A DNA stretch of 16,972 bases from a virus (Duplodnaviria; Heunggongvirae; Uroviricota; Caudoviricetes): the IMG/VR virus record IMGVR_UViG_2693429635_000010. The stretch is one strand, 5' to 3'. This document shows, piece after piece, positions 1,038 through 16,972 of the stretch (position 1 is the stretch's first letter; every line of letters begins with the position of its first letter). The notes below the pieces were generated by a model. The model had not been told where the DNA came from and did no database searches. It was given only the letters and a program-made list of their open reading frames with translations. Made by a program: the position numbers and the translations under genes.

Positions 1038-1040
1038 GTC

Positions 1041-1068
1041 CATAAGAAAGCCCCTCCGGAGAGGGGCT
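1041..1068 (-). terminator. Possible minus-strand terminator hairpin
   Basis: Perfect 8-bp stem AGCCCCTC / GAGGGGCT (1049-1068) with 4-nt loop; on the minus-strand RNA it is followed by UUCUUAU. The U tract is interrupted, so weaker than the others. Confidence 0.3.
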
Positions 1069-1263
1069 GGAGAGTGGCGCTATGTGCCATTGCATGGTGC
1101 CGGGTGCCTCCCGGTGAATTCAGTACCAGCACCTGAATCCGCGATTATCCCATATACCTACTCGCTGATTGCCCCTCCGCACAGGGGGATTCACCATGCC
1201 AGTTTCTTTTAACAAACTCCCCGCAAACCAGACAACAGTCAACCGCCTGAATTGTGAGACATT

Positions 1264-1304: not shown

Positions 1305-1381
1305 TGGCGCGTTGTACTGGATTCGAACCAGTGACCGATTGCTTAGAAGGCAATTGCTCTGTCCGGCTGAGCTAACAACGC
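1305..1381 (-). tRNA. tRNA-Arg (anticodon UCU)
   Basis: 77-nt cloverleaf read by hand on the minus strand: acceptor GCGTTGT/ACAACGC, D arm GCTC...GAGC, anticodon stem ATTGC/GCAAT with loop CTTCTAA, T arm ACTGG-TTCGAAT-CCAGT, discriminator G, encoded CCA. Position matches the argO-type tRNA of lambdoid late regions. Confidence 0.85.
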
Positions 1382-1394
1382 ATGATGCAGATAA

Positions 1395-1471
1395 TGGACC
1401 GCCATCGGGGACTTGAACCCCGCGCAGCCAGCTTCGAAGGCTGGCGCTCTTTCCTGATGAGCTAATGGCGG
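1395..1471 (-). tRNA. tRNA-Arg (anticodon UCG as read from loop CTTCGAA)
   Basis: 77-nt cloverleaf on the minus strand: acceptor CCGCCAT/ATGGCGG (7 bp), D arm GCTC...GAGC, anticodon stem CCAGC/GCTGG, T arm CGGGG-TTCAAGT-CCCCG, discriminator T, encoded CCA. Unusual C1-G72 first pair. Confidence 0.75.
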
Positions 1472-1478
1472 TATGTGA

Positions 1479-1554
1479 TGGTGGCCCTTGCTGGATTTGA
1501 ACCAGCGACCTGGCGATTATGAGTCGCTCGCTCTCACCACTGAGCTAAAGGGCC
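1479..1554 (-). tRNA. tRNA-Ile2 (anticodon CAU, lysidine type; ileZ-like; a plain CAU reading would be tRNA-Met)
   Basis: 76-nt cloverleaf on the minus strand: GGCCCTT acceptor, D arm GCTC-AGTGGTGA-GAGC, anticodon loop CTCATAA, T arm GCTGG-TTCAAAT-CCAGC, AAGGGCC-A-CCA. Closely resembles E. coli ileX/ileY as I recall them. Confidence 0.8.
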
Positions 1555-4153: not shown

Positions 4154-5200
4154 TTACCCGAGCACGCCAGTCGCAAAGGCGTGATCAAGAAAACGAAAAA
4201 TTAACTCAATCTGAGAGCCGTACTTTTTCTCAAACTCCAGCGGGTCTGCATGAAGTTCGTTGTGGTGCTCCCGGCACAACGGTAACGTGAAAATATCGTG
4301 GGCCTTTGTCCCCATTCCCCCCTGACCATGACCAATCAGGTGATGCGGATCGTCAGCAGGCTTACCACAACACGCACACGGCTGTGTCTTCACCCAGCGC
4401 GTGTATTTCTCGTTAACCCAGCGGCGACGTTTAGGTCGTTTCATGAAAGATTCCGGAGACTCAGGATCAACGGCAATGCTGACCACCGTCTTTTCCTGTG
4501 GCGGGTTTTGCTGGTGGGCGTGAGGCAGCGGCGCAAGATTTTTTGTGCGCTGCTTCAGTATGCTGGTGGCGGTCTGCTCTCCCGGTACGATGTCGCTTTC
4601 ACGGTACATTGAGCGGATTTTTTCCGCACGCAACCCCAGCGAACGACGTAATACCGCTTCCGGTAGCGCGTCCGCCACCTGATTGCGGACCGCCCACCAG
4701 GATAATTCAGCCAGAGATAATTCCCGTTCCTGTGCACCACTTATTGCGTGACGTATGACGTCAATCATCCAGGCTGTCAGATTTTGTTGAGCAAGCTGCC
4801 CGAGTGATTCGGATGTCTGGTCGCGCAGCTGGTTGTCGCAGTGCCAGCACAACACCATTGCGCCGGTACCATAACGGTGAATGACGGTTTCACTGTGGTG
4901 ATAATCACCGTGTGGCCACTGGCAGGATTTAACATGGCGCAGTAACCAGTCAGACAATGCGCCAGCGCCACCAGCAGCACGAATCACTCGTTCGTCGCTG
5001 AAAAATGGCAGTAATGATTTATCCTCCGCCAGCGGCTGGCGAACGGCAGGAACGACCCCGGACGGCAGATTACGCATGCTTTTCGGTTCCGGCTCCACCA
5101 GTACCCGGGTATTGTGGAATACCGGCATGGATTCACGGCCCGGCTTAACGATCACCAGCCCGAGTTCCGGTACCAGAACAGGTCGAAGTAATACCCGCAC
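4154..5200 (-). CDS. DUF968-like (YdfU-like) nin-region protein with C-terminal Cys/His motif
   Basis: 348-aa ORF with GTG start and GGAGG 5 nt upstream; C-terminus carries CACCGKP...HHLIGHG...LCREHHNELH, a zinc-finger/HNH-like signature. Size and position match the DUF968 proteins of lambdoid prophages. Confidence 0.55.
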   Translation of the reverse strand: MRVLLRPVLVPELGLVIVKPGRESMPVFHNTRVLVEPEPKSMRNLPSGVVPAVRQPLAEDKSLLPFFSDERVIRAAGGAGALSDWLLRHVKSCQWPHGDYHHSETVIHRYGTGAMVLCWHCDNQLRDQTSESLGQLAQQNLTAWMIDVIRHAISGAQERELSLAELSWWAVRNQVADALPEAVLRRSLGLRAEKIRSMYRESDIVPGEQTATSILKQRTKNLAPLPHAHQQNPPQEKTVVSIAVDPESPESFMKRPKRRRWVNEKYTRWVKTQPCACCGKPADDPHHLIGHGQGGMGTKAHDIFTLPLCREHHNELHADPLEFEKKYGSQIELIFRFLDHAFATGVLG

Positions 5201-5201
5201 G

Positions 5202-5480
5202 TTACCTCCAGATGCGTTGCTGGAATGTGCGGGACGGACGCGGTGGTCGTTCGGAGTAAGGAAGCCTGACGGAGATTATCCAGTGACGATAATCGAGGCT
5301 GAGGGCTTTCTTAATCTCGTATCCGTGTCTGCGGTAGCACTGAATTAGCCACTCGGCCTGTTCTTCAGTGCATGGGGGATGCTGGAACCAGTCAGATTTG
5401 AAAGTGCGGGAACGCCGCCCGTGCCTGCTGGCAGGGGCGGCAGAGTTATCCGAATTGTAAAATTTGGTATCGTGCGCCAT
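5202..5480 (-). CDS. Hypothetical nin-region protein (92 aa), paralogue of 10055..10333
   Basis: Internal ATG of track ORF 5202..5609: MAHDTKFYNSDNSAAPASRHGRRSRTFKSDWFQHPPCTEEQAEWLIQCYRRHGYEIKKALSLDYRHWIISVRLPYSERPPRPSRTFQQRIWR. About 80% identical to the copy-B paralogue, supporting a real gene; weak RBS. Confidence 0.45.
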   Translation of the reverse strand: MAHDTKFYNSDNSAAPASRHGRRSRTFKSDWFQHPPCTEEQAEWLIQCYRRHGYEIKKALSLDYRHWIISVRLPYSERPPRPSRTFQQRIWR

Positions 5481-5549
5481 CTGTTTTCTCTGCTGGCGCA
5501 GCAGGTGCCAGTTGTTCAGGCTGACGGATGGATTGTAAACCAGAACGAC

Positions 5550-5579
5550 CAGAAAAAACAAAACCCGCCGAAGCGGGTT
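5550..5579 (-). terminator. hok mRNA 3' terminator
   Basis: Minus-strand RNA AACCCGC-UUCG-GCGGGUU followed by UUUUGUUUUUU (plus-strand A-rich run 5551-5561). Confidence 0.5.
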
Positions 5580-5647
5580 AAGTGCGGGTGCGTTGAGGAT
5601 GCCTGACACATCAGAGGTGGCGAGGGATTTCTCCCCCGCCAGGTCTC

Positions 5648-5803
5648 TTACTCCTCAGGTTCGTAAGCTGTGAAGACAGCGACCTCCGTCTGGCCGGTTC
5701 GGATTCGTACCTCGCAGAGGTCTTTCCTCGTTACCAGTGCCGTCACTATGACGGTTAAACAGATGACGATCAGGGCGATTAACATCGCCTTTTGCTGCTT
5801 CAT
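5648..5803 (-). CDS. hok: Hok-family type I toxin (51 aa, HokD-like)
   Basis: MKQQKAMLIALIVICLTVIVTALVTRKDLCEVRIRTGQTEVAVFTAYEPEE, embedded in track ORF 5648..5860; matches the Hok/Gef consensus, and I recall HokD (RelF) of E. coli as identical. Confidence 0.85.
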   Translation of the reverse strand: MKQQKAMLIALIVICLTVIVTALVTRKDLCEVRIRTGQTEVAVFTAYEPEE

Positions 5804-5993
5804 AGCCTGCTTCTCCTTGCCTTTCGGCACGTAAGAGGCTAACCTACATTTGTGAGACATAGATTGGGCCTCAGATTAATGTTAAGCGTCTTGCAGGACG
5901 CGTAATGTTAACTGGGGCTTTTCTCTATCTGCCTTTTGGTGTTCATGCCTGAGACAGATAGCCTCAAGCACCCGCAGCAATTCTACTTAACTC
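5804..5993. promoter_or_regulatory. hok mRNA leader (mok / fold-back region) with the expected antisense Sok RNA gene on the plus strand
   Basis: Established hok/sok architecture. An inverted repeat CTATCTG...CAGATAG is visible near 5925-5958. Sok promoter and ends were not mapped. Confidence 0.4.
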
Positions 5994-6049
5994 TCCTTTT
6001 CCCGCAAACCGTTTTTACCCGATATGGGAATTCCCATATCGTAATGAAT

Positions 6050-6154
6050 TCAGTTCCCTAGTCGATCCATCAAAAACACAACCAGGCAGTAAACGCCCAC
6101 AACAGCAACAACAGCCAGCGCACCTTCCATTGCCAGTGATATATCATCCGACAT
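6050..6154 (-). CDS. Small hydrophobic peptide (34 aa, single predicted TM helix), not in the ORF track
   Basis: Hand translation: GGAGGGAAT-ATG then MSDDISLAMEGALAVVAVVGVYCLVVFLMDRLGN-TGA. A diverged homologue sits at the same relative position beside the second hok locus (11159..11248). Confidence 0.35.
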   Translation of the reverse strand: MSDDISLAMEGALAVVAVVGVYCLVVFLMDRLGN

Positions 6155-6269
6155 ATTCCCTCCTTTGGTGTTAATCCCGGCGAACGTTTTTACCCCCACC
6201 GACAAATAACATATACTAAAAAAGCGATAGCCATAGCAACGCCTGTAATTGCAAATGCTTCAGGCCAGT

Positions 6270-7139
6270 TCATTGGCGCACCTCCTGCGGCGGTTCTGGT
6301 AGCGGCATCCAGTGTGACGGTTTCCACGACGCACCAGGAATTATCCACCCATCATTAGCGTCAGGATGACCCGGGATGTAAGTCGCCCATTTCATTCGCC
6401 AGTCACCTTTCCTGTCAAACTCCACGGCAACAAGAACGGCTGTTTTGGTATCCGGCATTCGCTCACTACAGCTTATCCAACTATCCGGAGTTACCGGATA
6501 GTTGCCCGATAGTGCATTCTGCTCCAGTGATGCTTTTACAAACCACGCTGCCTGAACTATAACGCCATGAATCCAGCGCAAATCAGCATCGCGATCTTTC
6601 TTTTTCATCTTTTCGCCACTTAAGGCCTTGCTTATGTGGCTGCGTACCAGGTCTTCATGTAATTCCTTCGCCTCCTCAATGGTGAAACCACCAGGCAGAA
6701 GAGCCGGAGTTACCGGAGAGCTGGTTGACGCTTCCGGGATTTTCCGAAAATTATTGGTTGACGAATCTTTATTTTCCCGAAAGTTTCCGGACTGAAGCAT
6801 GGCTTCGCGGCAATCGTTCCAGCCTGTAGCGTATGCAGCCGCTTTGCTGCTGCCTTCAACTGGCGCATCCTGCCAATACATTTCTTCCGGCACTATCGGC
6901 GCTGGAGGGGCGGCAAATAGATATCCGCCAAAGTCAGGAAGCTCTCTAATGGCCTGTACGAATTTTTGTTTGCCTACGTCAACCCCTAATGGGTAATGAG
7001 CTATAATCTTTGCCACCGGCTCTGCTTCCAGCGATGCCAGCGCAATCCGTGCCAGTTCCATTTGTTCACCACGGGTAAGCCCGTTTTCAACCGGATTTTT
7101 AATGAACAATTCAATACGTTCTTTGGTAATAGTGGTCAT
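6270..7139 (-). CDS. Hypothetical protein with DUF551-like C-terminal domain
   Basis: 289-aa ORF with RBS AAGGAG (7-nt spacer). C-terminus WISCSERMPD...GDWRMKWATY...WMPLPEPP resembles the DUF551 signature of lambdoid prophage accessory proteins. Confidence 0.5.
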   Translation of the reverse strand: MTTITKERIELFIKNPVENGLTRGEQMELARIALASLEAEPVAKIIAHYPLGVDVGKQKFVQAIRELPDFGGYLFAAPPAPIVPEEMYWQDAPVEGSSKAAAYATGWNDCREAMLQSGNFRENKDSSTNNFRKIPEASTSSPVTPALLPGGFTIEEAKELHEDLVRSHISKALSGEKMKKKDRDADLRWIHGVIVQAAWFVKASLEQNALSGNYPVTPDSWISCSERMPDTKTAVLVAVEFDRKGDWRMKWATYIPGHPDANDGWIIPGASWKPSHWMPLPEPPQEVRQ

Positions 7140-7149
7140 GTGTTACTCC

Positions 7150-7413
7150 TTAACCCGCAGTGCTTTCAACTGATGAGGGGAACAAAATCTTTTCATCAAA
7201 CCCTGCATTCATATCATGAACAGCAACACACCAATCCATCGACGAACGATTATCAAGAGCCTCCATGATTTCATCCATGCGGCGTAGGTCATACAGGTAA
7301 ATGCTTTTATCGCCAATGGTGTAAAAGCCAATTTTTTTCGGTGATGGACAGCGATCAAGAACTTCCTGTAATTCGTTTAACCATGCCCGTTCTTTTTTTG
7401 TCAAAGTTGCCAT
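7150..7413 (-). CDS. Hypothetical protein (87 aa)
   Basis: Internal ATG at 7411-7413 of track ORF 7150..7503, with AAGGA 8 nt upstream: MATLTKKERAWLNELQEVLDRCPSPKK... The track's longer start lacks an RBS and would overlap the upstream gene. Confidence 0.5.
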   Translation of the reverse strand: MATLTKKERAWLNELQEVLDRCPSPKKIGFYTIGDKSIYLYDLRRMDEIMEALDNRSSMDWCVAVHDMNAGFDEKILFPSSVESTAG

Positions 7414-7414
7414 A

Positions 7415-7633
7415 TCAGTTTTCCTTATACGGATTAATTTTATTGTGCAGTGTGTTGAACGACGCCCATACAACGTCGGTATACAATTCAGTAACTGGCT
7501 CAATTATTTTCCCGATTGCCCAGACAAAAATTAGAGGGGATATCGGTATCATCAATACGATAAACAGAATGAGAAACAAAAATTCTGTCGACCTACTTTT
7601 TTGCGGATATTCTTTTCTGAATAATGTAGTCAT
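7415..7633 (-). CDS. Hypothetical small membrane protein (72 aa)
   Basis: Track ORF with hydrophobic core FLFLILFIVLMIPISPLIFVWAIG; tightly packed between neighbouring minus-strand genes; RBS weak. Confidence 0.35.
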   Translation of the reverse strand: MTTLFRKEYPQKSRSTEFLFLILFIVLMIPISPLIFVWAIGKIIEPVTELYTDVVWASFNTLHNKINPYKEN

Positions 7634-7665
7634 TTCTTACCGCCCTTTCGGGCGGCCTCCCGACA

Positions 7666-7878
7666 TTAATCGTTGTGGTAACTCATGGCTTCATTTGCAG
7701 CATCAACCGGATCAACCTCCCACCAGCAATAATTTGGTGCGTTTCCTTCAGGTGTCCACGGTTCTAATTCATTTTTTGCCACATTCCCATCGCCAGTAAT
7801 TTTAAAAATCTGCTCAGAGAATTTTCTTGCCCACTCGTTATATTTTTCCGCATTAATGGCTTTCTGTGTATTTAACAT
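7666..7878 (-). CDS. Hypothetical protein (70 aa)
   Basis: Track ORF with RBS GGAGG 8 nt upstream of the ATG. Confidence 0.5.
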   Translation of the reverse strand: MLNTQKAINAEKYNEWARKFSEQIFKITGDGNVAKNELEPWTPEGNAPNYCWWEVDPVDAANEAMSYHND

Positions 7879-7983
7879 AAATATACCTCCAGTTAAGGAT
7901 TAAATTTTATTTACAGTGCTGAACTTAATTATTCAGATTTGGATTATGCTTTCTCTTCACGAAGTTCCGATTGTTAATTTGGC

Positions 7984-8406
7984 TCACAACAGCACCTTCT
8001 GAAAATTACCCTGATAGAAAGCCAGTACACGCTGCATAGCTTCGCTCTTCCGGCACTCGCTACAGATTATGTTCAGACGCCTGTCGTAGCGGCGTATTTC
8101 TCCGTCTGGTAATGACCAGATAAGATCCGGATCAACCACAGATGGTTTCTTCACCTTTGCCCTAGATAGTTTTTTGCGGGCATTTTGCCAGTCCTTACGA
8201 GCCTGTTCAGACGGGAATAACCCGTAACCAGAGTTGTATACATCGCCACTGGCAACCAGCTCTCTGGCGAGAACGCTCATCAGATATCTTGTCGCACCTG
8301 TCCTGGCTTCCAGTTGCCGTAACGTCTCGCGCCCACTCCGGCGTACTAGTTCAACAACCTGCCCTTTAATTTTTTCCCGCTCTTCTTGTGTAAATACTTT
8401 TGCCAT
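7984..8406 (-). CDS. Hypothetical protein (140 aa), paralogue of 15628..16050
   Basis: ATG at 8404-8406 with GGAGG 6 nt upstream (the track's TTG start at 8421 would overlap the RBS): MAKVFTQEEREKIKGQVVELVRRSGRETLRQLEARTGATRYLMSVLARELVASGDVYNSGYGLFPSEQARKDW...; ~90% identical to the right-hand copy. Confidence 0.55.
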   Translation of the reverse strand: MAKVFTQEEREKIKGQVVELVRRSGRETLRQLEARTGATRYLMSVLARELVASGDVYNSGYGLFPSEQARKDWQNARKKLSRAKVKKPSVVDPDLIWSLPDGEIRRYDRRLNIICSECRKSEAMQRVLAFYQGNFQKVLL

Positions 8407-8421
8407 AAGCGCCTCCGGCAA

Positions 8422-9192
8422 TCACTTTTCCGATACAACACGGCGGGAAGAATCAGTAATCTGTCGAACAATATCCCGGTGCTTGTTCAGCTCCCGCAGC
8501 GCGGCGCAGACTCGCTCCCACTTCTGAACATCACTTTTCGCCCTGCGCAGCGCCAGGTTTGCCCTGCGAAGGGACGGAAAAATCAGCTCATCTGCTTGCG
8601 TTTCGGTAAACGATGGCAACGGCTGCACAATGTCCGCCACAGTTTCTGTTTTAATTTCTTCCTGTGTTGCGGCTTCCCGGACTGGTAACGCAGCACCTGC
8701 TGGCTGAGGAAAGGCCTTACCATCACTTTCCGTTACCAGCGCGGCTTTCGGCTCTGCTGGTAAATTATCGCCCGGCATGCAGTAACGAAATTTACCGTTC
8801 TGATTAACGCGTGCCAGCCGCCCCGTTGCGGTTACCACCGCCAGCGTGGAAGCAACCTTGCGAGTACTGACACCGAACTTACCCGCCAGTTCCTCACACG
8901 TTTTAGCCCCATCCTGACCGATAAACTCAATCATCATGTCTGCGGTAACTTTTTGTTCGACCTCCCCGGTCAGCATATCCTGTGCTTCAGATTTTACTGG
9001 CCGCTCTTCGGTTACCCGGGATTCACCTTCGCCAGCCAGAAACCAGGTGTGACCAGTTTTATCAACGACGCCATTTCTTTTGAGTTCCCACAGCTCGTTG
9101 ACAGCCTCTTCACGACTGATTCCAAGGCTGGCCGCCACTACCTGTGAAGAGGCTCTTTTCAGTGCTTTCAGTGCGTCAAATACGGTTTCCAT
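8422..9192 (-). CDS. Hypothetical protein (256 aa) with winged-helix-like N-terminus
   Basis: ATG at 9190-9192 with GGAGG 8 nt upstream (track uses an upstream TTG at 9210). N-terminus METVFDALKALKRASSQVVAASLGISREEAVNELWELKRNGVV suggests a DNA-binding fold. Confidence 0.45.
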   Translation of the reverse strand: METVFDALKALKRASSQVVAASLGISREEAVNELWELKRNGVVDKTGHTWFLAGEGESRVTEERPVKSEAQDMLTGEVEQKVTADMMIEFIGQDGAKTCEELAGKFGVSTRKVASTLAVVTATGRLARVNQNGKFRYCMPGDNLPAEPKAALVTESDGKAFPQPAGAALPVREAATQEEIKTETVADIVQPLPSFTETQADELIFPSLRRANLALRRAKSDVQKWERVCAALRELNKHRDIVRQITDSSRRVVSEK

Positions 9193-9225
9193 TAATATTT
9201 CCTCCGACAAAATCGTTTCTCAGAT

Positions 9226-9888
9226 TCAAATAAAACCAGCTGCCTTCCGGCGTTCGTATTCCTGTTTCAGCCGTTCAATTGGCGTTGGCCCTTGCGGGTG
9301 TTTCGCCCCTTCCAGTTGTCGTCGCACTGGCGGAACACTCATCCCGTTACCAACATGCTTTGCCCATTTCGTCAGTTGCCGTTCCGCAAGTCGTTTTAAC
9401 TCACCCTGCGTCATCTGGCGCTCAATCCCTCTGGTACGCATTTCGAGGCAGATGTGGTACAGCACAGGCTGTGGCCACGGGTATTTATCACTCCCGTCGT
9501 ATCGCCAGGATTCATTGCGCCAGCGCCGGTACTCTTCCATCACTGCATCCACCGTAAGACCAAATGGATTTGCCCCACTCTCCGAAATCAGTGCAACAAA
9601 CTCAGCCAGGTCCGGGGGCCACGTTTCACCCGCCCGGCAGCGGTCCATGCACTGACGGCAGACCAGCCGGATTTGCTGTTCAGTCATCGCGCCAATCTGG
9701 GCAATCCAGAGCTTCGAAGGTGCGGCCCCGTTCTTCTGTGTCCAGCGGTTCGAATACACCTCCCCCATAAGCTCCCACAGCTTCCAGGCCGTTTCCGTTG
9801 CTGATAAATCCGTTGTCACGTTCCCACTGTTCGCGTGCTGCCCGGATTTCCTGAACTGCCCGTGATGCCGTGCCACCTGATGCTGCAT
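9226..9888 (-). CDS. Replication protein P-like (lambda P family, helicase loader)
   Basis: 220-aa ORF with RBS AAGGGGG 5 nt upstream. The blocks TEQQIRLV...TWPPDLAEFVALISE and VDAVMEEYRRW...YPWPQPVLYHICLEM...TQGELKRLAERQL...VPPVRRQL resemble lambda P as I recall it. No O-like gene lies directly upstream. Confidence 0.5.
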   Translation of the reverse strand: MQHQVARHHGQFRKSGQHANSGNVTTDLSATETAWKLWELMGEVYSNRWTQKNGAAPSKLWIAQIGAMTEQQIRLVCRQCMDRCRAGETWPPDLAEFVALISESGANPFGLTVDAVMEEYRRWRNESWRYDGSDKYPWPQPVLYHICLEMRTRGIERQMTQGELKRLAERQLTKWAKHVGNGMSVPPVRRQLEGAKHPQGPTPIERLKQEYERRKAAGFI

Positions 9889-9891
9889 GGC

Positions 9892-10053
9892 TTACCCCCT
9901 TGCTGACTGGTTAGACGGCAGATTACGCATGCTTTTCGGTTCCGGCTCCACCAGTACCCGGGTATTGTGGAATACCGGCATGGATTCACGGCCCGGCTTA
10001 ACGATCACCAGCCCGAGTTCCGGTACCAGAATAGGTCGAAGTAATACCCGCAC
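9892..10053 (-). pseudogene. Truncated 5' fragment of a DUF968-family gene (53 codons), recombination remnant
   Basis: GTG at 10051-10053 opens a frame encoding MRVLLRPILVPELGLVIVKPGRESMPVFHNTRVLVEPEPKSMRNLPS, nearly identical to the N-terminus of the 4154..5200 protein; it then diverges at the repeat boundary (9913/9914) and stops after 7 further codons, just upstream of the P-like gene. Confidence 0.5.
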
Positions 10054-10054
10054 G

Positions 10055-10333
10055 TTACCTCCAGATGCGTTGCTGGAATGTGCGGGACGGACGCGGTGGG
10101 CGTTCGGAGTAAGGAAGCCTGACGGAGATTATCCAGTGACGGTAGTCGAGGCTAAGGGCTTTTTTAACCTCGTATCCGCGCCTGCGGTAACACTGAATTA
10201 TCCATTCAGCCTGCTCTTCAGTGCATGGTGGATGCTGGAACCAGTCCGATTTGAATGCATGAAAACGCCGTCCGCACCTGCTGGCAAAGACGGCAGAATC
10301 ATCAGAATTGTGTAATTTGGTATCGTGCGCCAT
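10055..10333 (-). CDS. Hypothetical nin-region protein (92 aa), paralogue of 5202..5480
   Basis: Internal ATG of track ORF 10055..10444: MAHDTKLHNSDDSAVFASRCGRRFHAFKSDWFQHPPCTEEQAEWIIQCYRRRGYEVKKALSLDYRHWIISVRLPYSERPPRPSRTFQQRIWR. Confidence 0.45.
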   Translation of the reverse strand: MAHDTKLHNSDDSAVFASRCGRRFHAFKSDWFQHPPCTEEQAEWIIQCYRRRGYEVKKALSLDYRHWIISVRLPYSERPPRPSRTFQQRIWR

Positions 10334-10694
10334 CGGTTGTCTCTGCTGGCGCAGCAGGTGCCAGTTGTTCAGGCTGGCGTATAAAGTATAAATAAACTGG
10401 TTCCAGTGTAAAGCCCCTACATTAATGGAATAAAAGTCAAACAACAGATTGTTGGGATAAACACAACGCTTATTATTAAAAGCGATTAGATAAATTAAAT
10501 TTTAATGTTATGCAATTTTACCAGATCACCATAACATCTCGTTTGAAACCACCGAAACAACAACCATATCAATATTGATTATGTTAAAGTGAGTAAATAT
10601 GGAAAACAACAAATCTGCACATTACGCTCCTTTTTTATCTGTGATACTTTTTGTTTTATGCTGTGTGTGGGCATTATTTTTATAAAAATATTTA

Positions 10695-10723
10695 CAGATA
10701 AAATAAACCCGCCGAAGCGGGTT
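10695..10723 (-). terminator. hok mRNA 3' terminator (second copy)
   Basis: Same AACCCGC-UUCG-GCGGGUU hairpin as at 5562-5579, followed on the minus strand by UUUAUUU. Confidence 0.45.
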
Positions 10724-10791
10724 AAGTGCGGGTGCATTGAGGATGCCTGACACATCAGAGGTGGCGAGGGATTTCTCCCTCGCCGGGTCTC

Positions 10792-10947
10792 TTACTCCTC
10801 AGGTTCGTAAGCTGTGAAGACAGCGACCTCCGTCTGGCCGGTTCGGATTCGTACCTCGCAGAGGTCTTTCCTCGTTACCAGTGCCGTCACTATGACGGTT
10901 AAACAGATGACGATCAGGGCGATTAACATCGCCTTTTGCTGCTTCAT
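10792..10947 (-). CDS. hok: Hok-family type I toxin (51 aa), second copy
   Basis: Encodes the same 51-aa protein as 5648..5803, embedded in track ORF 10792..11004. Confidence 0.85.
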   Translation of the reverse strand: MKQQKAMLIALIVICLTVIVTALVTRKDLCEVRIRTGQTEVAVFTAYEPEE

Positions 10948-11136
10948 AGCCTGCTTCTCCTTGCCTTTCGGCACGTAAGAGGCTAACCTAGATTTGCCGT
11001 TCATAGATTGAGCCTCAGATTAATGTTAAGCGTCTTGCAGGACGCGTAATGTTAACTGGGGCTTTTCTCTATCTGCCGTTGGTGTTCATGCCTGAGACAG
11101 ATAGCCTCAAGCACCCGCAGCCATTCTACTTAACTC
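10948..11136. promoter_or_regulatory. hok mRNA leader / expected antisense Sok region (second copy)
   Basis: Near-identical to 5804..5993. Confidence 0.4.
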
Positions 11137-11158
11137 CCGTCACCTCGCCAATATGAAA

Positions 11159-11248
11159 TCAGTCAGAAAGGCGATCCATAAGAACAACAGCAAGGCAATA
11201 AATTGCCATTACAGCAGCAATAGCCAGCGCACATTTGAGAACCAGCAC
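11159..11248 (-). CDS. Small hydrophobic peptide (29 aa), homologue of 6050..6154, not in the ORF track
   Basis: AGGAGG then GTG (5-nt spacer): (M)LVLKCALAIAAVMAIYCLAVVLMDRLSD. Shares the A-rich hydrophobic core and LMDRL C-terminal motif with the copy-A peptide; lies in a different frame from the Cys-rich track ORF 11163..11471. Confidence 0.3.
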   Translation of the reverse strand: MLVLKCALAIAAVMAIYCLAVVLMDRLSD

Positions 11249-11544
11249 CACAACCTCCTGTATTGGACGTACACCAGTCCTGATAAATATGAGGCTGTCT
11301 CGTCAGTGATTCAATACAACTATTGGGTATAGTTTCTGTGATTTTGTTCTGTAGAAATGGAACACAACAACCAGTCACCACCAGCACTTCTTTAAATACG
11401 CCAAGTCCGACGCAAGCTAACCTTCTAGGCCGCTTTGAGCGAAGAGCGGACGCTCGCATCTGTCCCAACACACTGAGGGCTTCACGAACACCTAGGTGTA
11501 CTCGTCAACTGGGAAAAAGTCAGATTATCTGCGTAAGTTTCAGC

Positions 11545-11572
11545 GTAAAAATTGGGCACTATAAAAGTGCCC
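11545..11572 (-). terminator. Rho-independent terminator 3' of the large NTPase gene
   Basis: Minus-strand RNA GGGCAC-UUUUAUA-GUGCCC (6-bp stem) followed by AAUUUUUA, starting ~25 nt after the TAG stop at 11596-11598. Confidence 0.5.
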
Positions 11573-11595
11573 AAACTGTAGAAAAATACATAATG

Positions 11596-14500
11596 CTATG
11601 TATCTGAGCCAAACATAGAGCGCCGCCTTGTTATTTTATAATAAGTGGGATTTTCATTATCCACCTCAAAATCAGAGAAGAAGTGGTTATCTCTTAATGC
11701 TGTTAATAAACTTTGATTAGTTGAATCAACTTCAATTTTAGGTTTGCCTCGCCCCAAAATTTTACTGAACTCCGATAAACCAAGCAGATCAAGATACTCT
11801 TTGCAAGTCGTCTTACTCAAATCCTTACCCGGCAACAAAGCGATTAGCAGTGCTATTTTATTCTGCATATTCAGTCCCTCTGCGACAAACAGGTTTTTTA
11901 GTAACGGTTCAGAAACATCATTAGGACTTGCTATCAATGCTGATATATCCTGTATTGCTCGACTCAAGATGAGCGACTGAGTAGAGGTTCCCCAAGTTTT
12001 ATAAGATGACGTCAAGATTAGAAGTTCATCTGGTTTAAAATTATTTTCTAAAATATAGTCATTAACGACCTGAGAGTAATTCTTACTATAAATAGCCAAC
12101 GGAGTTTTAACAAACTCGAGTAGCTTAACTTTCAAATCATCATCAACTTTCCAAGAAAGTATTGATATAGCCTCATCCAAAATAAAGTTATCAATCGTCA
12201 TTAATTCAACGTATGCCCTGATATTCTTATGAATATAATAGGAAAGTTGCTCTGAATAGTTATCTCGTATGAAATTAAGTGGCGCAACATTCATACGAAT
12301 AATATTTTTATCCACTAATATTTTGAACTTATCACTCGCGATATCACTAGCGCTAAAGGATGTTTTACAAATAATATTTAGTGAGCAAATTAATTTTTCA
12401 TATTTATCATTTGATAAATCATTACAGATAACAATCGATTTAAATAATTTACCTTTAAGCTCGTTATCAATATTAATATTTTGAAAATTCAGGTCTACAT
12501 CAGTTCTATTGATAAATTCGATAAGTGAGTCATCCAGTCCATCAACATGTTCAAAATAAGAGACAATATTTTCCTCAGAGCACACTGCTCTATCTTTATC
12601 CAACAAAGATGACCATAAAGATTCGCTCTCAACCTCACTCAGAGATGTCACGAAAGTTTGCAAAGCGTTTATATACTGGCCTTTTTGTTCATCAGATATT
12701 CCCTCATTATTAAGAACGGATAAAACAATGGATTCATCATCCACGATTGAACCATCACAACTAGATAAAACCATATCCAGATAGTCCCTAATATGGTTAT
12801 TAACATAACTAGCCAAGGGAGAATCAGGTTGTGACATCACTAGTGTATAGTTCTTATGGCGAATATCATCTTCACTATTAAGCGTGTAAACCTTACTCAG
12901 CATTAAGGTCAGGTTGGAAAAATTAATATCATAAAGTGAATGCTGGTAAACCGCATCAAAGAGTACTTTATTTGCGTTTTCAAATTTAATACTGACAAAA
13001 GAGACGTTAAGCAACTTAAAACCACTAATTAATTTGTCAACCTTTGGTTCTGATATTGCTAAATAACCTGCCGAATCAGAGATGTAATCAGTCAGACAAT
13101 CATCAATATTAATGGCCTCGATGGCGTCATTGGCAGAATAATAAAACGTGCCTATAGAGTAGAGTTTAACCCAATCAGCAGAAAATTCACTCTCTGTCAG
13201 CGCATAAGAAAAAAACTCAGGCCACTGTGTATTTAATCGATTAATGAAGACAGGCTGAGCCCTCTCAGTTTCAAAGTAACCACGAATAAACTCAACTCTT
13301 CTATCTTTTCTTAGTTGTTTGAATAAACGTTTTATTAAGTTTACCAGGGCTGGCGTTTGAAGCAGATAAGCTAATAAATCAAAATTAAGCGCCTCTTCCT
13401 GTTCAAAATCCACTTCTCGAAGGCGGGCAACGACCAGCTTGGGGTTCTTGAGTTGATAAGTGAACTCTTTGCCTTTTTGATCGGTAATGCTGCGTAAAAA
13501 CATCTTATCAATTCGACTCAGGCTATTTTCATAAAAATAGGTCATATAGTCGGTATAGGTTTCATCAATATAACCATCACGAATAAGGTATTTAAGCAAG
13601 TCAAAATACTCACTGCTTTTTATTTCATTAAAGTCTCTTTCCTCTCCAATTTCATTGGTATAGGTGAGTTTAAATATTTCATCAATGTTTTCTCTAGTTA
13701 TTACTTCTTTAAGTCTTTTGTTTCTAGAATCAACCAAACTTTCTCTTGATCTTGATATAAGCTCATTAATTTCTTCTATTTTACCATTAAATTTATTTTC
13801 AACACTTTCTTTTCTAGCCGCCCTTCTCTTTGCTATATCAGCTTTCTCAGCCTGATTATAGTGAGGATGATTATTATATCTAGATAATTCCTTATCGTAT
13901 ATAGCATCAACCTCCTGACTAGAGTTGAGTATTTCATCATTGATTGCCTCAATCTCTTTTTTTCTATCTCTAATATCTTTTTCTATTTTCTTTATTTCTT
14001 CAATAATAAGGTTGTCTTTTTCACTAAATATGGTATAAACCATACCTTGATTAAGTTGCAACTCACTAAAATCTCTTGGGAAAATATTCTTATAGGCAAT
14101 AATGGCCAACATTTTATTACAGTCAAGTTCTGTCGTGTTTAATTTGTTATAATAAATTTGAAATTCGTTATAAATATTCTTCAATATTCTCATATCATCA
14201 ATATATAAAGACATCCCTTGTAGAAATCTTTCATTGAACAACTTGAGAATACCACCACCATCAAAATGTGTGATAAACTGATCGTAAGAGTTAGAACTAT
14301 CAACAACAGGAATAACTGGAATGATATAATCAAAGAATTTGGTTCTATCCTTCGAAATGAAGATATCATCACGAAGCAAGTAAATAAAACGTAACGTCGA
14401 TTTCTTGTGCCCTGCTGTGTCCCGTTGAATATTAACCAGTCTGTTAACCTCATGAAGACGTTCAAAGATGTTATTACTATTAAAACGGTCCATGTCTTCA

Positions 14501-15228
14501 AAAACAATGGCATCAGCATCAACGTTCTCGAAAAGGTACAATACTTCATTTAAATATCTATCGAAATAAGACTCGTTACTTTCTTCAAAAATCTCTATTT
14601 CATTACCCTGTAAATTTATTTTCTTAAGAACATTACGATTCTTTTGGGTTTTTATTAACTTGTAAATGAAAATACAAGATAGGATAGTACATATAAACCC
14701 ACTAATTAAAAGCGTATCGTATTTAGTTGATAATGTAAGTAGTGTCTTTATATTACCTTCAGATAAAAGTGAAACAAACTTTTCCCACTTATTAAATAGC
14801 GTGATATGTAGTATCATAGCGATAAATAACACCGTAAAGATGGTGTTTATCACAATGTTGTTAGTTTTTATTTTTTTCTTTACTTTAAAATGTGTCTGGG
14901 GAATATCATCAGCATTAATTTGGTGAATTAACTGGTTAAGAACTTTACCTTCTAACGCGGTTTCATTTATATCTTTACTTGGTTCATTAGTTTCAGCTTC
15001 CTCAATCGATCTGAAATGAGCAAGTGAGATATGAACAAACTTTATATTTGAATGACTTTTCTTATAGGATTCGATAAGACTACTTTTTCCTGCGCTATAT
15101 TGCCCTGATATCGCAACATTTTTTAGATCGTTATTGGCAAAAACAAAATCTATCGCATTTTTATATACACCCAGCTCAACATCGCTGAACGGCGTTAACT
15201 TTTGAAATTTATAGCTATCATCACTCAT
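11596..15228 (-). CDS. Large KAP-type P-loop NTPase (1210 aa): Walker A, two hydrophobic helices, Walker B, coiled-coil region and ~700-aa C-terminal region of unknown function; candidate defence/abortive-infection protein
   Basis: Single uninterrupted 3.6-kb ORF, ATG at 15226-15228 with AAGGGA RBS. Walker A SGQYSAGKSS (aa 41-50); hydrophobic helices NIVINTIFTVLFIAMILHITLF (~aa 124-145) and LLISGFICTILSCIFIYKLI (~aa 171-192); Walker-B-like DAIVFEDMD (~aa 238-246); K/E-rich coiled-coil-like stretch ~aa 400-510. Gene body is visibly AT-rich relative to the flanks. Confidence 0.7.
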   Translation of the reverse strand: MSDDSYKFQKLTPFSDVELGVYKNAIDFVFANNDLKNVAISGQYSAGKSSLIESYKKSHSNIKFVHISLAHFRSIEEAETNEPSKDINETALEGKVLNQLIHQINADDIPQTHFKVKKKIKTNNIVINTIFTVLFIAMILHITLFNKWEKFVSLLSEGNIKTLLTLSTKYDTLLISGFICTILSCIFIYKLIKTQKNRNVLKKINLQGNEIEIFEESNESYFDRYLNEVLYLFENVDADAIVFEDMDRFNSNNIFERLHEVNRLVNIQRDTAGHKKSTLRFIYLLRDDIFISKDRTKFFDYIIPVIPVVDSSNSYDQFITHFDGGGILKLFNERFLQGMSLYIDDMRILKNIYNEFQIYYNKLNTTELDCNKMLAIIAYKNIFPRDFSELQLNQGMVYTIFSEKDNLIIEEIKKIEKDIRDRKKEIEAINDEILNSSQEVDAIYDKELSRYNNHPHYNQAEKADIAKRRAARKESVENKFNGKIEEINELISRSRESLVDSRNKRLKEVITRENIDEIFKLTYTNEIGEERDFNEIKSSEYFDLLKYLIRDGYIDETYTDYMTYFYENSLSRIDKMFLRSITDQKGKEFTYQLKNPKLVVARLREVDFEQEEALNFDLLAYLLQTPALVNLIKRLFKQLRKDRRVEFIRGYFETERAQPVFINRLNTQWPEFFSYALTESEFSADWVKLYSIGTFYYSANDAIEAINIDDCLTDYISDSAGYLAISEPKVDKLISGFKLLNVSFVSIKFENANKVLFDAVYQHSLYDINFSNLTLMLSKVYTLNSEDDIRHKNYTLVMSQPDSPLASYVNNHIRDYLDMVLSSCDGSIVDDESIVLSVLNNEGISDEQKGQYINALQTFVTSLSEVESESLWSSLLDKDRAVCSEENIVSYFEHVDGLDDSLIEFINRTDVDLNFQNINIDNELKGKLFKSIVICNDLSNDKYEKLICSLNIICKTSFSASDIASDKFKILVDKNIIRMNVAPLNFIRDNYSEQLSYYIHKNIRAYVELMTIDNFILDEAISILSWKVDDDLKVKLLEFVKTPLAIYSKNYSQVVNDYILENNFKPDELLILTSSYKTWGTSTQSLILSRAIQDISALIASPNDVSEPLLKNLFVAEGLNMQNKIALLIALLPGKDLSKTTCKEYLDLLGLSEFSKILGRGKPKIEVDSTNQSLLTALRDNHFFSDFEVDNENPTYYKITRRRSMFGSDT

Positions 15229-15309
15229 TGATATCCCTTCCCAATCTTCACCGAGAGAGCTGGCTTTCGGAGTTAATCAAACAAAATCATGCAGATAAAA
15301 TTTCGCCTT

Positions 15310-15345
15310 ATTATAGCAGACACAACTGCAAAGATTAGCTAAAGC
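15310..15345 (-). promoter_or_regulatory. Putative promoter of the NTPase gene (extended -10 type)
   Basis: Minus-strand TGcTATAAT (hexamer complementary to 15310-15315, TG complementary to 15317-15318), ~85 nt upstream of the start codon; no convincing -35, as is typical for extended -10 promoters. Confidence 0.35.
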
Positions 15346-15627
15346 CTCGTTGTTTTCTTCATCTATCCCTATAATTTTACACTACAGTTAGCACTTACTA
15401 TACCTGAAAGCTTTGCTCGTAAAGAGCACAATCGCAAGTCAGCAAAGCACGACTTTGCAATCGAGCGCCGCTAAAACAGTGCTGAATCGCTACGACTTAG
15501 GCAGCCATCTTATCGGTTGGCAGATAATTTCTAACTTCCGCTTCTGGCACAAAGCGGACAACCACGATAGCTCTATCCTGTGCCACAAAATGTCAATTCA
15601 CATCTTAACTAATGCATTTTAATCTCG

Positions 15628-16050
15628 TCACTTTAATAAATACCGAACATTCCCCTGATAAAACGACAATATGCGCTGCATAACTTCGCTTTTACGACAC
15701 TCAGTACAAATTATATTATGATGCCTGTCGTAACGACGTATTTCTCCATCAGGTAATGACCAGATAAGGTCCGGATCAACCGCAGATGGTTTCTTCAGCT
15801 TTGCCCTTGAGAGCTTTTTACGGGCATTTTGCCAGTCCTTACGCGCCTGTTCAGACGGGAATAACCCGTAACCAGAATTGTATACATCACCGCTGGCAAC
15901 CAGCTCTCTCGCGAGAACGCTCATCAGATATCTTGTCGCACCTGTCTTGACTTCCAGTTGTCGTAACGTCTCACGCCCACTCTGGCGTACGAGTTCAACA
16001 ACCTGCCCTTTAATTTTTTCTCGCTCTTCTTGTGTAAATACTTTTGCCAC
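15628..16050 (-). CDS. Hypothetical protein (140 aa), paralogue of 7984..8406
   Basis: GTG start with AGGAGG 4-5 nt upstream: MAKVFTQEEREKIKGQVVELVRQSGRETLRQLEVKTGATRYLMSVLARELVASGDVY... Confidence 0.55.
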   Translation of the reverse strand: MAKVFTQEEREKIKGQVVELVRQSGRETLRQLEVKTGATRYLMSVLARELVASGDVYNSGYGLFPSEQARKDWQNARKKLSRAKLKKPSAVDPDLIWSLPDGEIRRYDRHHNIICTECRKSEVMQRILSFYQGNVRYLLK

Positions 16051-16090
16051 AAGTCCTCCTGAAAATTACCTCATGACCTGAAATAAACAC

Positions 16091-16972
16091 TTACCCCCTG
16101 AAGCCCGGCGGAATTTCGGTATCCGGTTCAGAAATATGATTCACACAACGCTGGTTGTTCGTGCCGTTTACCGGGAGCAACCAGGGGTTTTCAAAATTCC
16201 GGTCCGGTCCAAAAAACGTCGTCGCTCGCTGAACAAATTCCGTTCCCGTTTTCCCGGTAACCGCTAGGTATCTTGCGTAACGCCTCACGCCATCCAGCAT
16301 GGCCTCTGGTGGCACCCCCTCGCGTAATCTGGCCTTCCAGGCACTGAAAGCGGATTTCTTCGGGTTTGCCCCGGCACGCAACGGGTACTCCCGCCAGATC
16401 TGTTCGAACACATCCGGATAATCCACTCGTCCCACAGACTGCCCGGTGTTTTCCGGGACTACCCGATCGGCTTCCCGCTGAATGGCGGAATCGGCTTCGG
16501 GCTGCCGCAGTTGGTGTGATTGCTCCGGCCTTGCGGTCATCACCTGCTGCACAGCGCCCGAATCGGCTTTCAGCGCATACGCTGAATCGGCTTCCGGTGT
16601 CGTGCCTGCTGGCTGACCAGGATTGACGGTCTGAACATCCCCTGCCTGGTTCGTGGCGTTTTTTACGCCATGGACCATAGTGTTTTGATCTTCTTGATCT
16701 GTATCTTTATCTGTATCTTTATCTGTCGTGACTCGTCGTGACATGTGCGTGACATTTCGTGACGCGCCGTGACAATCGCCATTTTGTTCCCGCTTTCTTT
16801 CCCTCTCTCGCTGCGCCCTCTTGCGCTCTGCAGGAGATTTTGCGGTTTGCGAAATATTGCCGTTGTCCTCTTTCAGCACCTGGCGTTTTTCCCATCCAGT
16901 GATTAAATCACCATCAAGTACCCGCCCCTGCATCGTCTGCAAAATTGAATCAATTACCTCTTCTGTCACGTC
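16091..16972 (-). CDS. Replication-initiator-like protein (lambda-O-like organisation: acidic linker encoded by an iteron array, conserved C-terminal domain); 5' end outside the window
   Basis: Frame is open to the right window edge (codon at 16970-16972 is in frame), so the track's GTG at 16969 is not necessarily the start. Internal DNA repeats encode ...SRRVTTDKDTDKDTDQEDQ...; C-terminal domain DYPDVFEQIWREYPLRAGANPKKSAFSAWKARL...FFGPDRNFENPWLLP. The family call rests on gene position and repeat structure, not a confirmed homology. Confidence 0.45.
   Translation of the reverse strand, partial: DVTEEVIDSILQTMQGRVLDGDLITGWEKRQVLKEDNGNISQTAKSPAERKRAQRERERKREQNGDCHGASRNVTHMSRRVTTDKDTDKDTDQEDQNTMVHGVKNATNQAGDVQTVNPGQPAGTTPEADSAYALKADSGAVQQVMTARPEQSHQLRQPEADSAIQREADRVVPENTGQSVGRVDYPDVFEQIWREYPLRAGANPKKSAFSAWKARLREGVPPEAMLDGVRRYARYLAVTGKTGTEFVQRATTFFGPDRNFENPWLLPVNGTNNQRCVNHISEPDTEIPPGFRG
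16685..16773. repeat. Iteron-like array (putative replication origin) inside the initiator-like gene
   Basis: Five CGTGAC motifs starting at 16727, 16737, 16748, 16758 and 16768 (10-11 bp spacing, one per helical turn); two tandem 12-bp repeats ATCTGTATCTTT (16697-16720) plus a partial third; two GATC sites in TTGATC repeats (16685-16699). Confidence 0.5.

Follow-up and report, generated by a model that had tools for sequence, protein, structure and literature searches.

Results

The Window Carries Two Near-Identical hok/sok Units

The stretch of DNA analyzed here, referred to as the window, is 16,972 bp long and represents the whole of contig CXZY01000049.1 from draft assembly GCA_001283525.1. 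All of its genes lie on the minus strand and correspond to the early-right region of a lambdoid prophage, with replication genes, nin-type genes, RusA, a Q-like DUF1133 protein, a methylase and tRNAs. Two direct repeats, at 5550-5993 (-) (copy A) and 10695-11136 (-) (copy B), are situated between the replication genes and Q; they are 96.4% identical, with 16 differences over 444 aligned columns; this alignment returned exactly the boundaries that an earlier, sequence-only reading of the same DNA had given for two hok/sok-type loci. Copy A was a 100% match to loci in NZ_CP090611.1 and NZ_CM132280.1 that are annotated as hokD in RefSeq, and a chance resemblance can therefore be ruled out.

Each repeat contains a minus-strand open reading frame (hok A, 5648-5803; hok B, 10792-10947), and the two translate to the same 51-aa peptide, MKQQKAMLIALIVICLTVIVTALVTRKDLCEVRIRTGQTEVAVFTAYEPEE, as had been claimed. 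The coding sequences are identical at the DNA level as well. The peptide is 100% identical to HokD (RelF) of Escherichia coli K-12 and 92% identical to HokW of phage 933W/Sp5, and both copies matched Pfam HOK_GEF (3e-23, 81.6 bits against a cut-off of 22), so that the length of ~50 aa, the N-terminal hydrophobic helix and the PF01848 domain expected of a Hok toxin are all present twice. In an alignment of 93 sequences (91 distinct IMG/VR loci plus the two window copies), the hok coding sequence varied by only 0.07 bits per site, and this near-invariance suggests purifying selection. Among the recorded gene calls of the contig, hok copy A is present, whereas the identical copy B (10792-10947) is missing, as are mok and sok; the annotation given here thus supplies a clean description of the contig, including these genes that were so far uncalled.

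Codon 47 of hok is UAC followed by G in both copies (5663-5665 (-) and 10807-10809 (-)), and this UACG can be read as the A-to-I (TadA) editing motif. Recoding of Tyr to Cys in the hokD mRNA, like that in hokB, has been described in a preprint (10.1101/2025.08.07.668861).

Elsewhere in the window, three phage-borne tRNA genes (1305-1554 (-)) were identified by ARAGORN as Met(CAT), Arg(TCG) and Arg(TCT), the first of which RefSeq calls tRNA-Ile in related prophages. These genes lie downstream of the Q-like gene and of a DNA methyltransferase gene (1604-2533). Just downstream of the tRNA cluster, and upstream of a SASA/DUF1737 esterase gene, we found an Rfam match to the STnc100 sRNA (1038-1228 (-)) scoring 138 bits against a gathering score of 47.

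Both Copies Retain mok and a Predicted Two-State mRNA Fold

In each repeat, hok is overlapped by a mok frame of 70 codons with its own ribosome-binding site, and translation of hok is predicted to be coupled to it. mok A is in frame with hok at 5648-5860 (-), with its ATG at 5860 and a GAGG ribosome-binding site at ~5869-5872, and this layout is that of the annotated mokW in 933W. mok B occupies 10792-11004 (-), starts at an ATG at 11004 and encodes the N-terminus MNGKS instead of MSHKC. The GAGG lies 9 nt upstream of the mok ATG in both copies. Loss of the mok start had been named beforehand as a sign of decay, and the reading frames showed it to be intact in both loci.

The full-length hok A mRNA was placed at 5556-5975 (-), with a putative start at ~5973-5975 (the Rfam model begins at 5973), and the hok B mRNA at 10701-11118 (-). 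Upstream of them are putative promoters, TTGCGG-16-TAGAAT for hok A (5980-6007 (-)), which was read from the sequence and is identical to that of 933W, and TTGGCG-17-TAGAAT for hok B (11123-11151 (-)), a promoter scan hit with 9/12 matches whose -35 element falls outside the repeat. Minimum-energy folding of the hok A mRNA located tac (5962-5975 (-)), ucb (anti-SD, ~5912-5920 (-)), the mok SD (~5868-5874 (-)) and fbi (5584-5598 (-)), while dcb (~5836-5840 (-)) was located in the fold of the 3′-truncated form. A terminator, consisting of a hairpin followed by a T-run, was identified by the terminator scan at 5562-5579 (-). Copy B displayed the same two-state pairing, with fbi at 10728-10742 (-) in the fold and a terminator hairpin, again followed by a T-run, at 10706-10723 (-).

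In the predicted minimum-energy folds of both full-length mRNAs (~420 nt), tac (nucleotides 1-14) pairs with fbi, CCUCAA(C/U)GCACCCGC, which precedes the terminator, and the mok ribosome-binding site is paired with ucb, GCCCCAG. When ~45 nt were trimmed from the 3′ end, the predicted pairing in both copies changed to tac with ucb, and the mok ribosome-binding site paired with dcb (GCCUC) in the Sok-target hairpin. Both the tac/fbi fold-back and the alternative ucb/dcb pairings of a hok mRNA are thus predicted for each copy, and the resulting two-state switch is that of the R1 hok model as summarized in PMC9841398.

The leaders and the whole hok mRNAs were strongly structured relative to dinucleotide shuffles (z = -8.5 for A and -6.9 for B), in agreement with the structured leader and 3′ terminator hairpin that had been described for each locus. 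The tac and fbi columns were invariant among the 93 aligned hokD/W sequences. As for the differences between the copies, the one at 5592, within fbi, sits on a bulged nucleotide, and the one at 5636, in a 3′-UTR hairpin, converts a G.U pair to A-U, so both look structure-neutral. Rfam model RF01794 matched copy A at 5798-5973 (-) with 120.1 bits and copy B at 10942-11116 (-) with 107.0 bits, against a gathering score of 59. Although this model is named "sok antitoxin," it aligns to the sense strand of the hok mRNA and ends at the hok start codon, and we therefore read the match as marking the hok leader and not the Sok RNA strand.

An Antisense Sok Gene Lies Opposite Each mok Start

Coordinates for the antisense RNA were transferred from GenBank AF125520 (933W), in which sokW is annotated as a 71-nt misc_RNA. 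This placed the 71-nt Sok A at 5852-5922 (+) and, by homology to the same sokW, the 71-nt Sok B at 10996-11066 (+). Their promoters, at 5817-5845 (+) and 10961-10989 (+), both read TTGCCT-17-TAACCT and are identical to one another and to that of hokW-sokW. Both RNAs were predicted to fold into a long hairpin that is preceded by a 14-nt single-stranded 5′ tail and followed by a U-rich tail (z = -5.9 for A and -5.3 for B). Each copy therefore possesses a cis-encoded Sok gene opposite the mok start, with promoter, 5′ tail and terminator hairpin.

Comparison with a characterized hok/sok locus, which the sequence-only reading had proposed as a check on the Sok promoter, showed that the -35 and -10 elements of both copies are those of the validated sokW promoter, in which mutation of TAACCT to GAGCCG (primers YO-421/422), the change used for a sokW construct without promoter, abolished SokW antitoxin activity (Takada et al., 2021; PMC8621323). 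In a scan against the sigma-70 consensus, the Sok promoter (7/12 consensus matches) and the copy A hok promoter both fell below threshold. We rejected promoter decay as an explanation for these scores because the same sequences drive the active hokW-sokW of Sp5.

With every defining element kept in both copies at the sequence level, the identification of the loci as hok/sok-type type I toxin-antitoxin modules was borne out, and neither copy appears to be a decayed remnant. We nevertheless considered that one or both could be silent relics despite an intact-looking sequence, as are several chromosomal hok loci of K-12. In the hokD locus of K-12, nothing of the module remains beyond the hok ribosome-binding site on its upstream side, with homology stopping at window position 5817, and chromosomal hokA, hokB and hokC are reported to lack post-segregational killing, in work cited in 10.1101/2025.08.07.668861. 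In the window, however, all elements are intact in both copies, and the hok coding sequence is unchanged between them and nearly so (0.07 bits per site) among 93 sequences. In addition, the 94%-identical hokW-sokW is active (PMC8621323), and the HokD peptide itself has served as a toxic control (10.1101/2025.08.07.668861). We therefore regard silent relics as unlikely.

The Two Copies Derive From Different Prophages

To judge from sequence identity, the contig consists of prophage X interrupted by ~4.9 kb derived from prophage Y. Window positions 1 to ~5000 were 100% identical, and positions 9913-16972 (7,060 bp) 99.99% identical, to an annotated E. coli prophage in NZ_CM129889.1 (X, strain MB06102), while positions ~5000-9912 were 100% identical to a prophage in NZ_CP090611.1 (Y, strain DCE7). 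Gene order in X is DUF977, a YobI/Tmn-like NTPase, hokD, a 92-aa ORF, DUF968, RusA and Q, and in Y it is a DnaT-like gene, P, DUF1627 and DUF977, followed further on by DUF551, hokD, the 92-aa ORF and DUF968. The two DUF977 genes of the window (7984-8421 (-) and 15628-16050 (-)), one from each parent prophage, share 88-89% DNA identity.

The two boundaries between X and Y are of different kinds. One is a homologous crossover inside DUF968. The other, mapped to 9912|9913, is an illegitimate junction at which the 3′ part of the Y DnaT-like gene is joined to the X DUF968 gene, 140 nt from the DUF968 start, with no microhomology found at the join. This left a 53-aa DUF968 stump (9892-10053 (-)) and a 233-nt 3′ remnant of the DnaT-like gene (9680-9912 (-)). 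Because of this two-junction insertion, hok/sok, the 92-aa ORF and the 5′ end of DUF968 are present twice, the latter two as a 470-bp block at 5060-5529 (-) that is repeated at 9913-10382; a further sequence (L003, 9001-9470) matches both places of the block. The second hok/sok copy thus appears to have been created by the 9912|9913 event, with copy A being that of Y and copy B, which lies inside the 7,060-bp segment, that of X. A simple tandem duplication was rejected as the origin because the two flanks derive from different prophages. The description of the copies as lying inside one prophage accordingly holds insofar as both are on one contig, but that contig is a hybrid of two prophages.

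The same observations bear on whether the two-copy arrangement could be an assembly or library chimera, from a strain with two separate prophages carrying one hokD locus each. The window is an entire contig of a draft assembly, strains with both parent prophage types at separate sites do exist (CD45 and 19AR0254), and the 9912|9913 junction did not turn up in any of 5,426 complete E. coli genomes, nor in IMG/VR, the GTDB representatives or the JGI metagenomes, a search that recovered the source contig alone, through its 53-aa truncated DUF968 ORF. Against this, the contig is recorded in 2 samples, and a mis-join induced by repeats would be expected to change partners within the shared repeat and not to cut off one repeat copy at a unique point, while the 9912|9913 join has no shared sequence. 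On that ground we judged repeat-induced mis-assembly to be unlikely and consider the hybrid structure to be probably real, leaving a chimera of any kind distinctly improbable.

hokD-Type Loci Are Common but Rarely Paired in cis

The hokD-type locus was present in 4,943 of 5,426 complete E. coli genomes, at a median of 2 and a maximum of 10 places per genome. Phage records with the locus contained it at 103 places in 102 records, and apart from this contig the two-copy state in cis was seen in 1 of 594 IMG/VR stretches. In that record (IMGVR_UViG_2695420579_000006), the copies are at 84-493 and 2628-2975, 2.5 kb apart; both have the A-type Sok allele, and the second is without the 3′ ~85 nt at the BLAST level. 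Similarly, 96.3% of hok-bearing phages were found to have one homolog and 3.5% to have two (2026 preprint; 10.1101/2025.08.07.668861). By frequency, then, the earlier description of the pair as unusual stands; its origin, on the other hand, is trivial, through recombination.

The Sok 5′ End Differs Between the Copies and Is Hypervariable Among Relatives

The differences between the copies are not evenly spread, as 7 of the 16 cluster within 21 nt (permutation p = 1.7e-4), and five consecutive ones correspond to Sok nucleotides 2-6. Sok A, which begins GUGAGA, and Sok B, which begins GCCGUU, differ solely at nucleotides 2-6 and 16. Allele-specific probe sequences are 5′-GUGAGACAUAGAUU for Sok A and 5′-GCCGUUCAUAGAUU for Sok B. 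The variable positions (5852-5857 (+) and 10996-11001 (+)) correspond in the mRNA to the loop of the target hairpin and to mok codons 2-5. For duplexes between the first 11 nt of Sok and the target, the predicted energies were -17.7 and -18.9 kcal/mol for the cognate pairs and -4.8 and -4.9 kcal/mol for the non-cognate pairs.

Across the 93 aligned sequences, entropy peaked at Sok nucleotides 1-6 (1.23 bits), above the values of the transcript (0.17) and of the hok coding sequence (0.07). This variation is organized into discrete alleles, 16 of them in the first sample, and the five major ones each occurred in 88 to more than 120 IMG/VR contigs. Two different alleles are present in the window, and 933W has a third.

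These patterns led us to a tentative reading, which we hold to be possible but rather less than evenly likely, in which hokD/hokW-type lambdoid loci fall into discrete Sok specificity alleles, such that Sok A and Sok B would not cross-protect against each other's hok mRNA. Under this reading, we propose that alleles arise when the first five to six nucleotides of Sok are replaced, and by analogy they might be likened to the incompatibility groups of antisense-controlled plasmids. The hypervariability could equally be explained if the loop were the sole unconstrained stretch of a locus locked by overlapping constraints. Cross-talk at the Sok recognition site between co-resident prophage modules would bear on whether such modules can stabilize individual prophages in polylysogens.

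We also asked whether co-resident loci avoid a shared Sok allele. A first scan yielded three pairs only; a non-exhaustive by-eye tally over five allele-specific scans then gave 4 same-allele and 13 different-allele genome pairs (n = 17). This is close to the expectation from random pairing, and the 17-pair tally therefore provides no support for allele avoidance.

The allele difference does raise the idea that the duplication was selected, with two mutually insulated modules providing a double or redundant killing function, since Sok A and Sok B differ at 5 of their first 6 nucleotides and the predicted duplex energies separate cognate (-17.7/-18.9 kcal/mol) from non-cognate (-4.8/-4.9 kcal/mol) pairs. 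The difference was, however, inherited from the two parent prophages, and co-resident loci often share an allele, both in 4 of the 17 genome pairs tallied by eye and in the only other cis pair. Furthermore, the junction was found nowhere else in the collections searched and cuts two genes short, a pattern suggestive of a recent accident. A selected pair is, in our view, very improbable. Instead, we conclude that recombination between prophages generated the duplication as a rare by-product, and that it is neither a designed pair nor a new system.

A Tmn/YobI-Like Gene Neighbors Copy B

Between DUF977 and hok copy B lies a gene for a 1210-aa YobI-family P-loop NTPase (11596-15228 (-)). The protein matched Pfam YobI-ATPase (8e-123) and the PADLOC Tmn model (7e-68), the latter over residues 9-439 of 1210 only, and beyond the ~440 N-terminal residues it gave no family match. 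The adjacency of one hok copy to a candidate defense gene, which the sequence-only reading had remarked on, is simply the native arrangement of prophage X. The adjacency of Tmn-like gene and hokD recurs in several E. coli genomes and prophages at at least 99.5% identity, and prophages without the Tmn-like gene carry hokD at the same position, upstream of the 92-aa ORF and DUF968.

That copy B and the NTPase form a functional defense island, for instance with hok as an abortive-infection back-up, is an idea to which the two family matches, the recurrent adjacency and the partial exclusion of phage T4 by R1 hok/sok (as cited in PMC8621323) lend some appeal, but it is the least credible of the explanations considered here, given that hokD holds the same position where the Tmn-like gene is missing, that hok is not enriched within 20 kb of defense systems (12% versus 9.4% expected; preprint 10.1101/2025.08.07.668861) and that the Sp5 module aids phage release and does not block phage (PMC8621323).

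Discussion

Taken together, our results make it highly probable that the two loci are intact hok/mok/sok modules of the hokD / hokW-sokW lineage, one that is widespread among lambdoid E. coli prophages, and that the pair arose from recombination between prophages X and Y. Given the elements they retain and their predicted folds, both copies should work like R1 hok/sok and the hokW-sokW of Sp5.

In such a scheme, a weak promoter (-10 TAGAAT) would give rise to a stable mRNA of ~420 nt that, from its sequence and fold, is expected to be inert, with tac paired to fbi and the mok site sequestered by ucb. Slow trimming at the 3′ end, as in R1 hok/sok and Sp5 hokW-sokW, would take off fbi, and in the trimmed RNA tac is predicted to pair with ucb while the mok ribosome-binding site and dcb form a hairpin that presents the Sok target in its loop. 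The 71-nt Sok, whose gene is seen in the sequence, would be transcribed from the opposite strand by the TTGCCT-17-TAACCT promoter. Its 5′ tail would then bind the loop and block translation of mok and of the coupled hok, and RNase III would cleave the duplex. If Sok synthesis were to stop, whether through DNA loss, transcription shut-off or prophage induction, the unstable Sok would decay, upon which Hok would be made, insert into the inner membrane and kill or lyse the cell. As both copies are co-oriented with the early-right operon, read-through following induction would oppose the Sok promoters. Prophage stabilization and abortive infection are both possible roles.

The element itself is already known, its RefSeq relatives being annotated as hokD. 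The discovery value is small, as the module is among the commonest mobile elements of E. coli and its closest relative has been characterized experimentally. What the contig does document is inter-prophage recombination duplicating a killer module.

Near-identical repeated toxin/sRNA modules that have few differences, located in the sRNA recognition region, are familiar from zorO-orzO/zorP-orzP and ibs-sib. In those cases, toxins of other families were duplicated in tandem on the chromosome, and the discrimination between Sok A and Sok B is, by comparison, a predicted one.

The R1 hok/sok (parB) system shares the architecture and the predicted two-state switch of the window copies, including tac/fbi, ucb, dcb, mok coupling and the Sok 5′ tail. 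It differs in its carrier, a plasmid instead of a prophage, and the Sok hairpin in the window is 16 nt longer owing to an insert in the Rfam alignment. R1 Hok is ~43% identical to the window Hok, and HokW is 44% identical to R1 Hok (PMC8621323).

Closest among the characterized systems is hokW-sokW of 933W and Sp5/VT2-Sakai, with ~94% DNA identity over the locus (93.8% to 933W). Its Sok -35 and -10 elements and its tac, fbi, ucb and dcb sequences are the same as those of the window copies, and in 933W, where mokW, hokW and sokW are annotated, the in-frame layout of mok and hok is also shared. The differences comprise four C-terminal Hok residues, the Sok 5′ tail together with mok codons 2-5 (i.e., another allele), and the position of the locus, which is near the right end of the 933W genome and between the replication genes and Q in the window. 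Experimentally, HokW toxicity, SokW antitoxin activity and the sokW promoter have been demonstrated, establishing a type I pair that aids lysis on induction (PMC8621323). Upon RecA-dependent prophage induction SokW vanishes and HokW accumulates, and deletion of hokW-sokW halves phage release (PMC8621323).

Finally, hokD (relF) of the Qin cryptic prophage in K-12 is identical to the window copies in its Hok peptide, coding sequence, 3′ UTR, fbi and terminator, and it occupies the same position upstream of ydfU (DUF968) and the Q genes. There, however, relBE lies directly upstream, beyond the point at which homology ends (window 5817), and the locus is without promoter, tac, ucb, mok start and Sok gene, all of which the window copies, as the complete form, possess.
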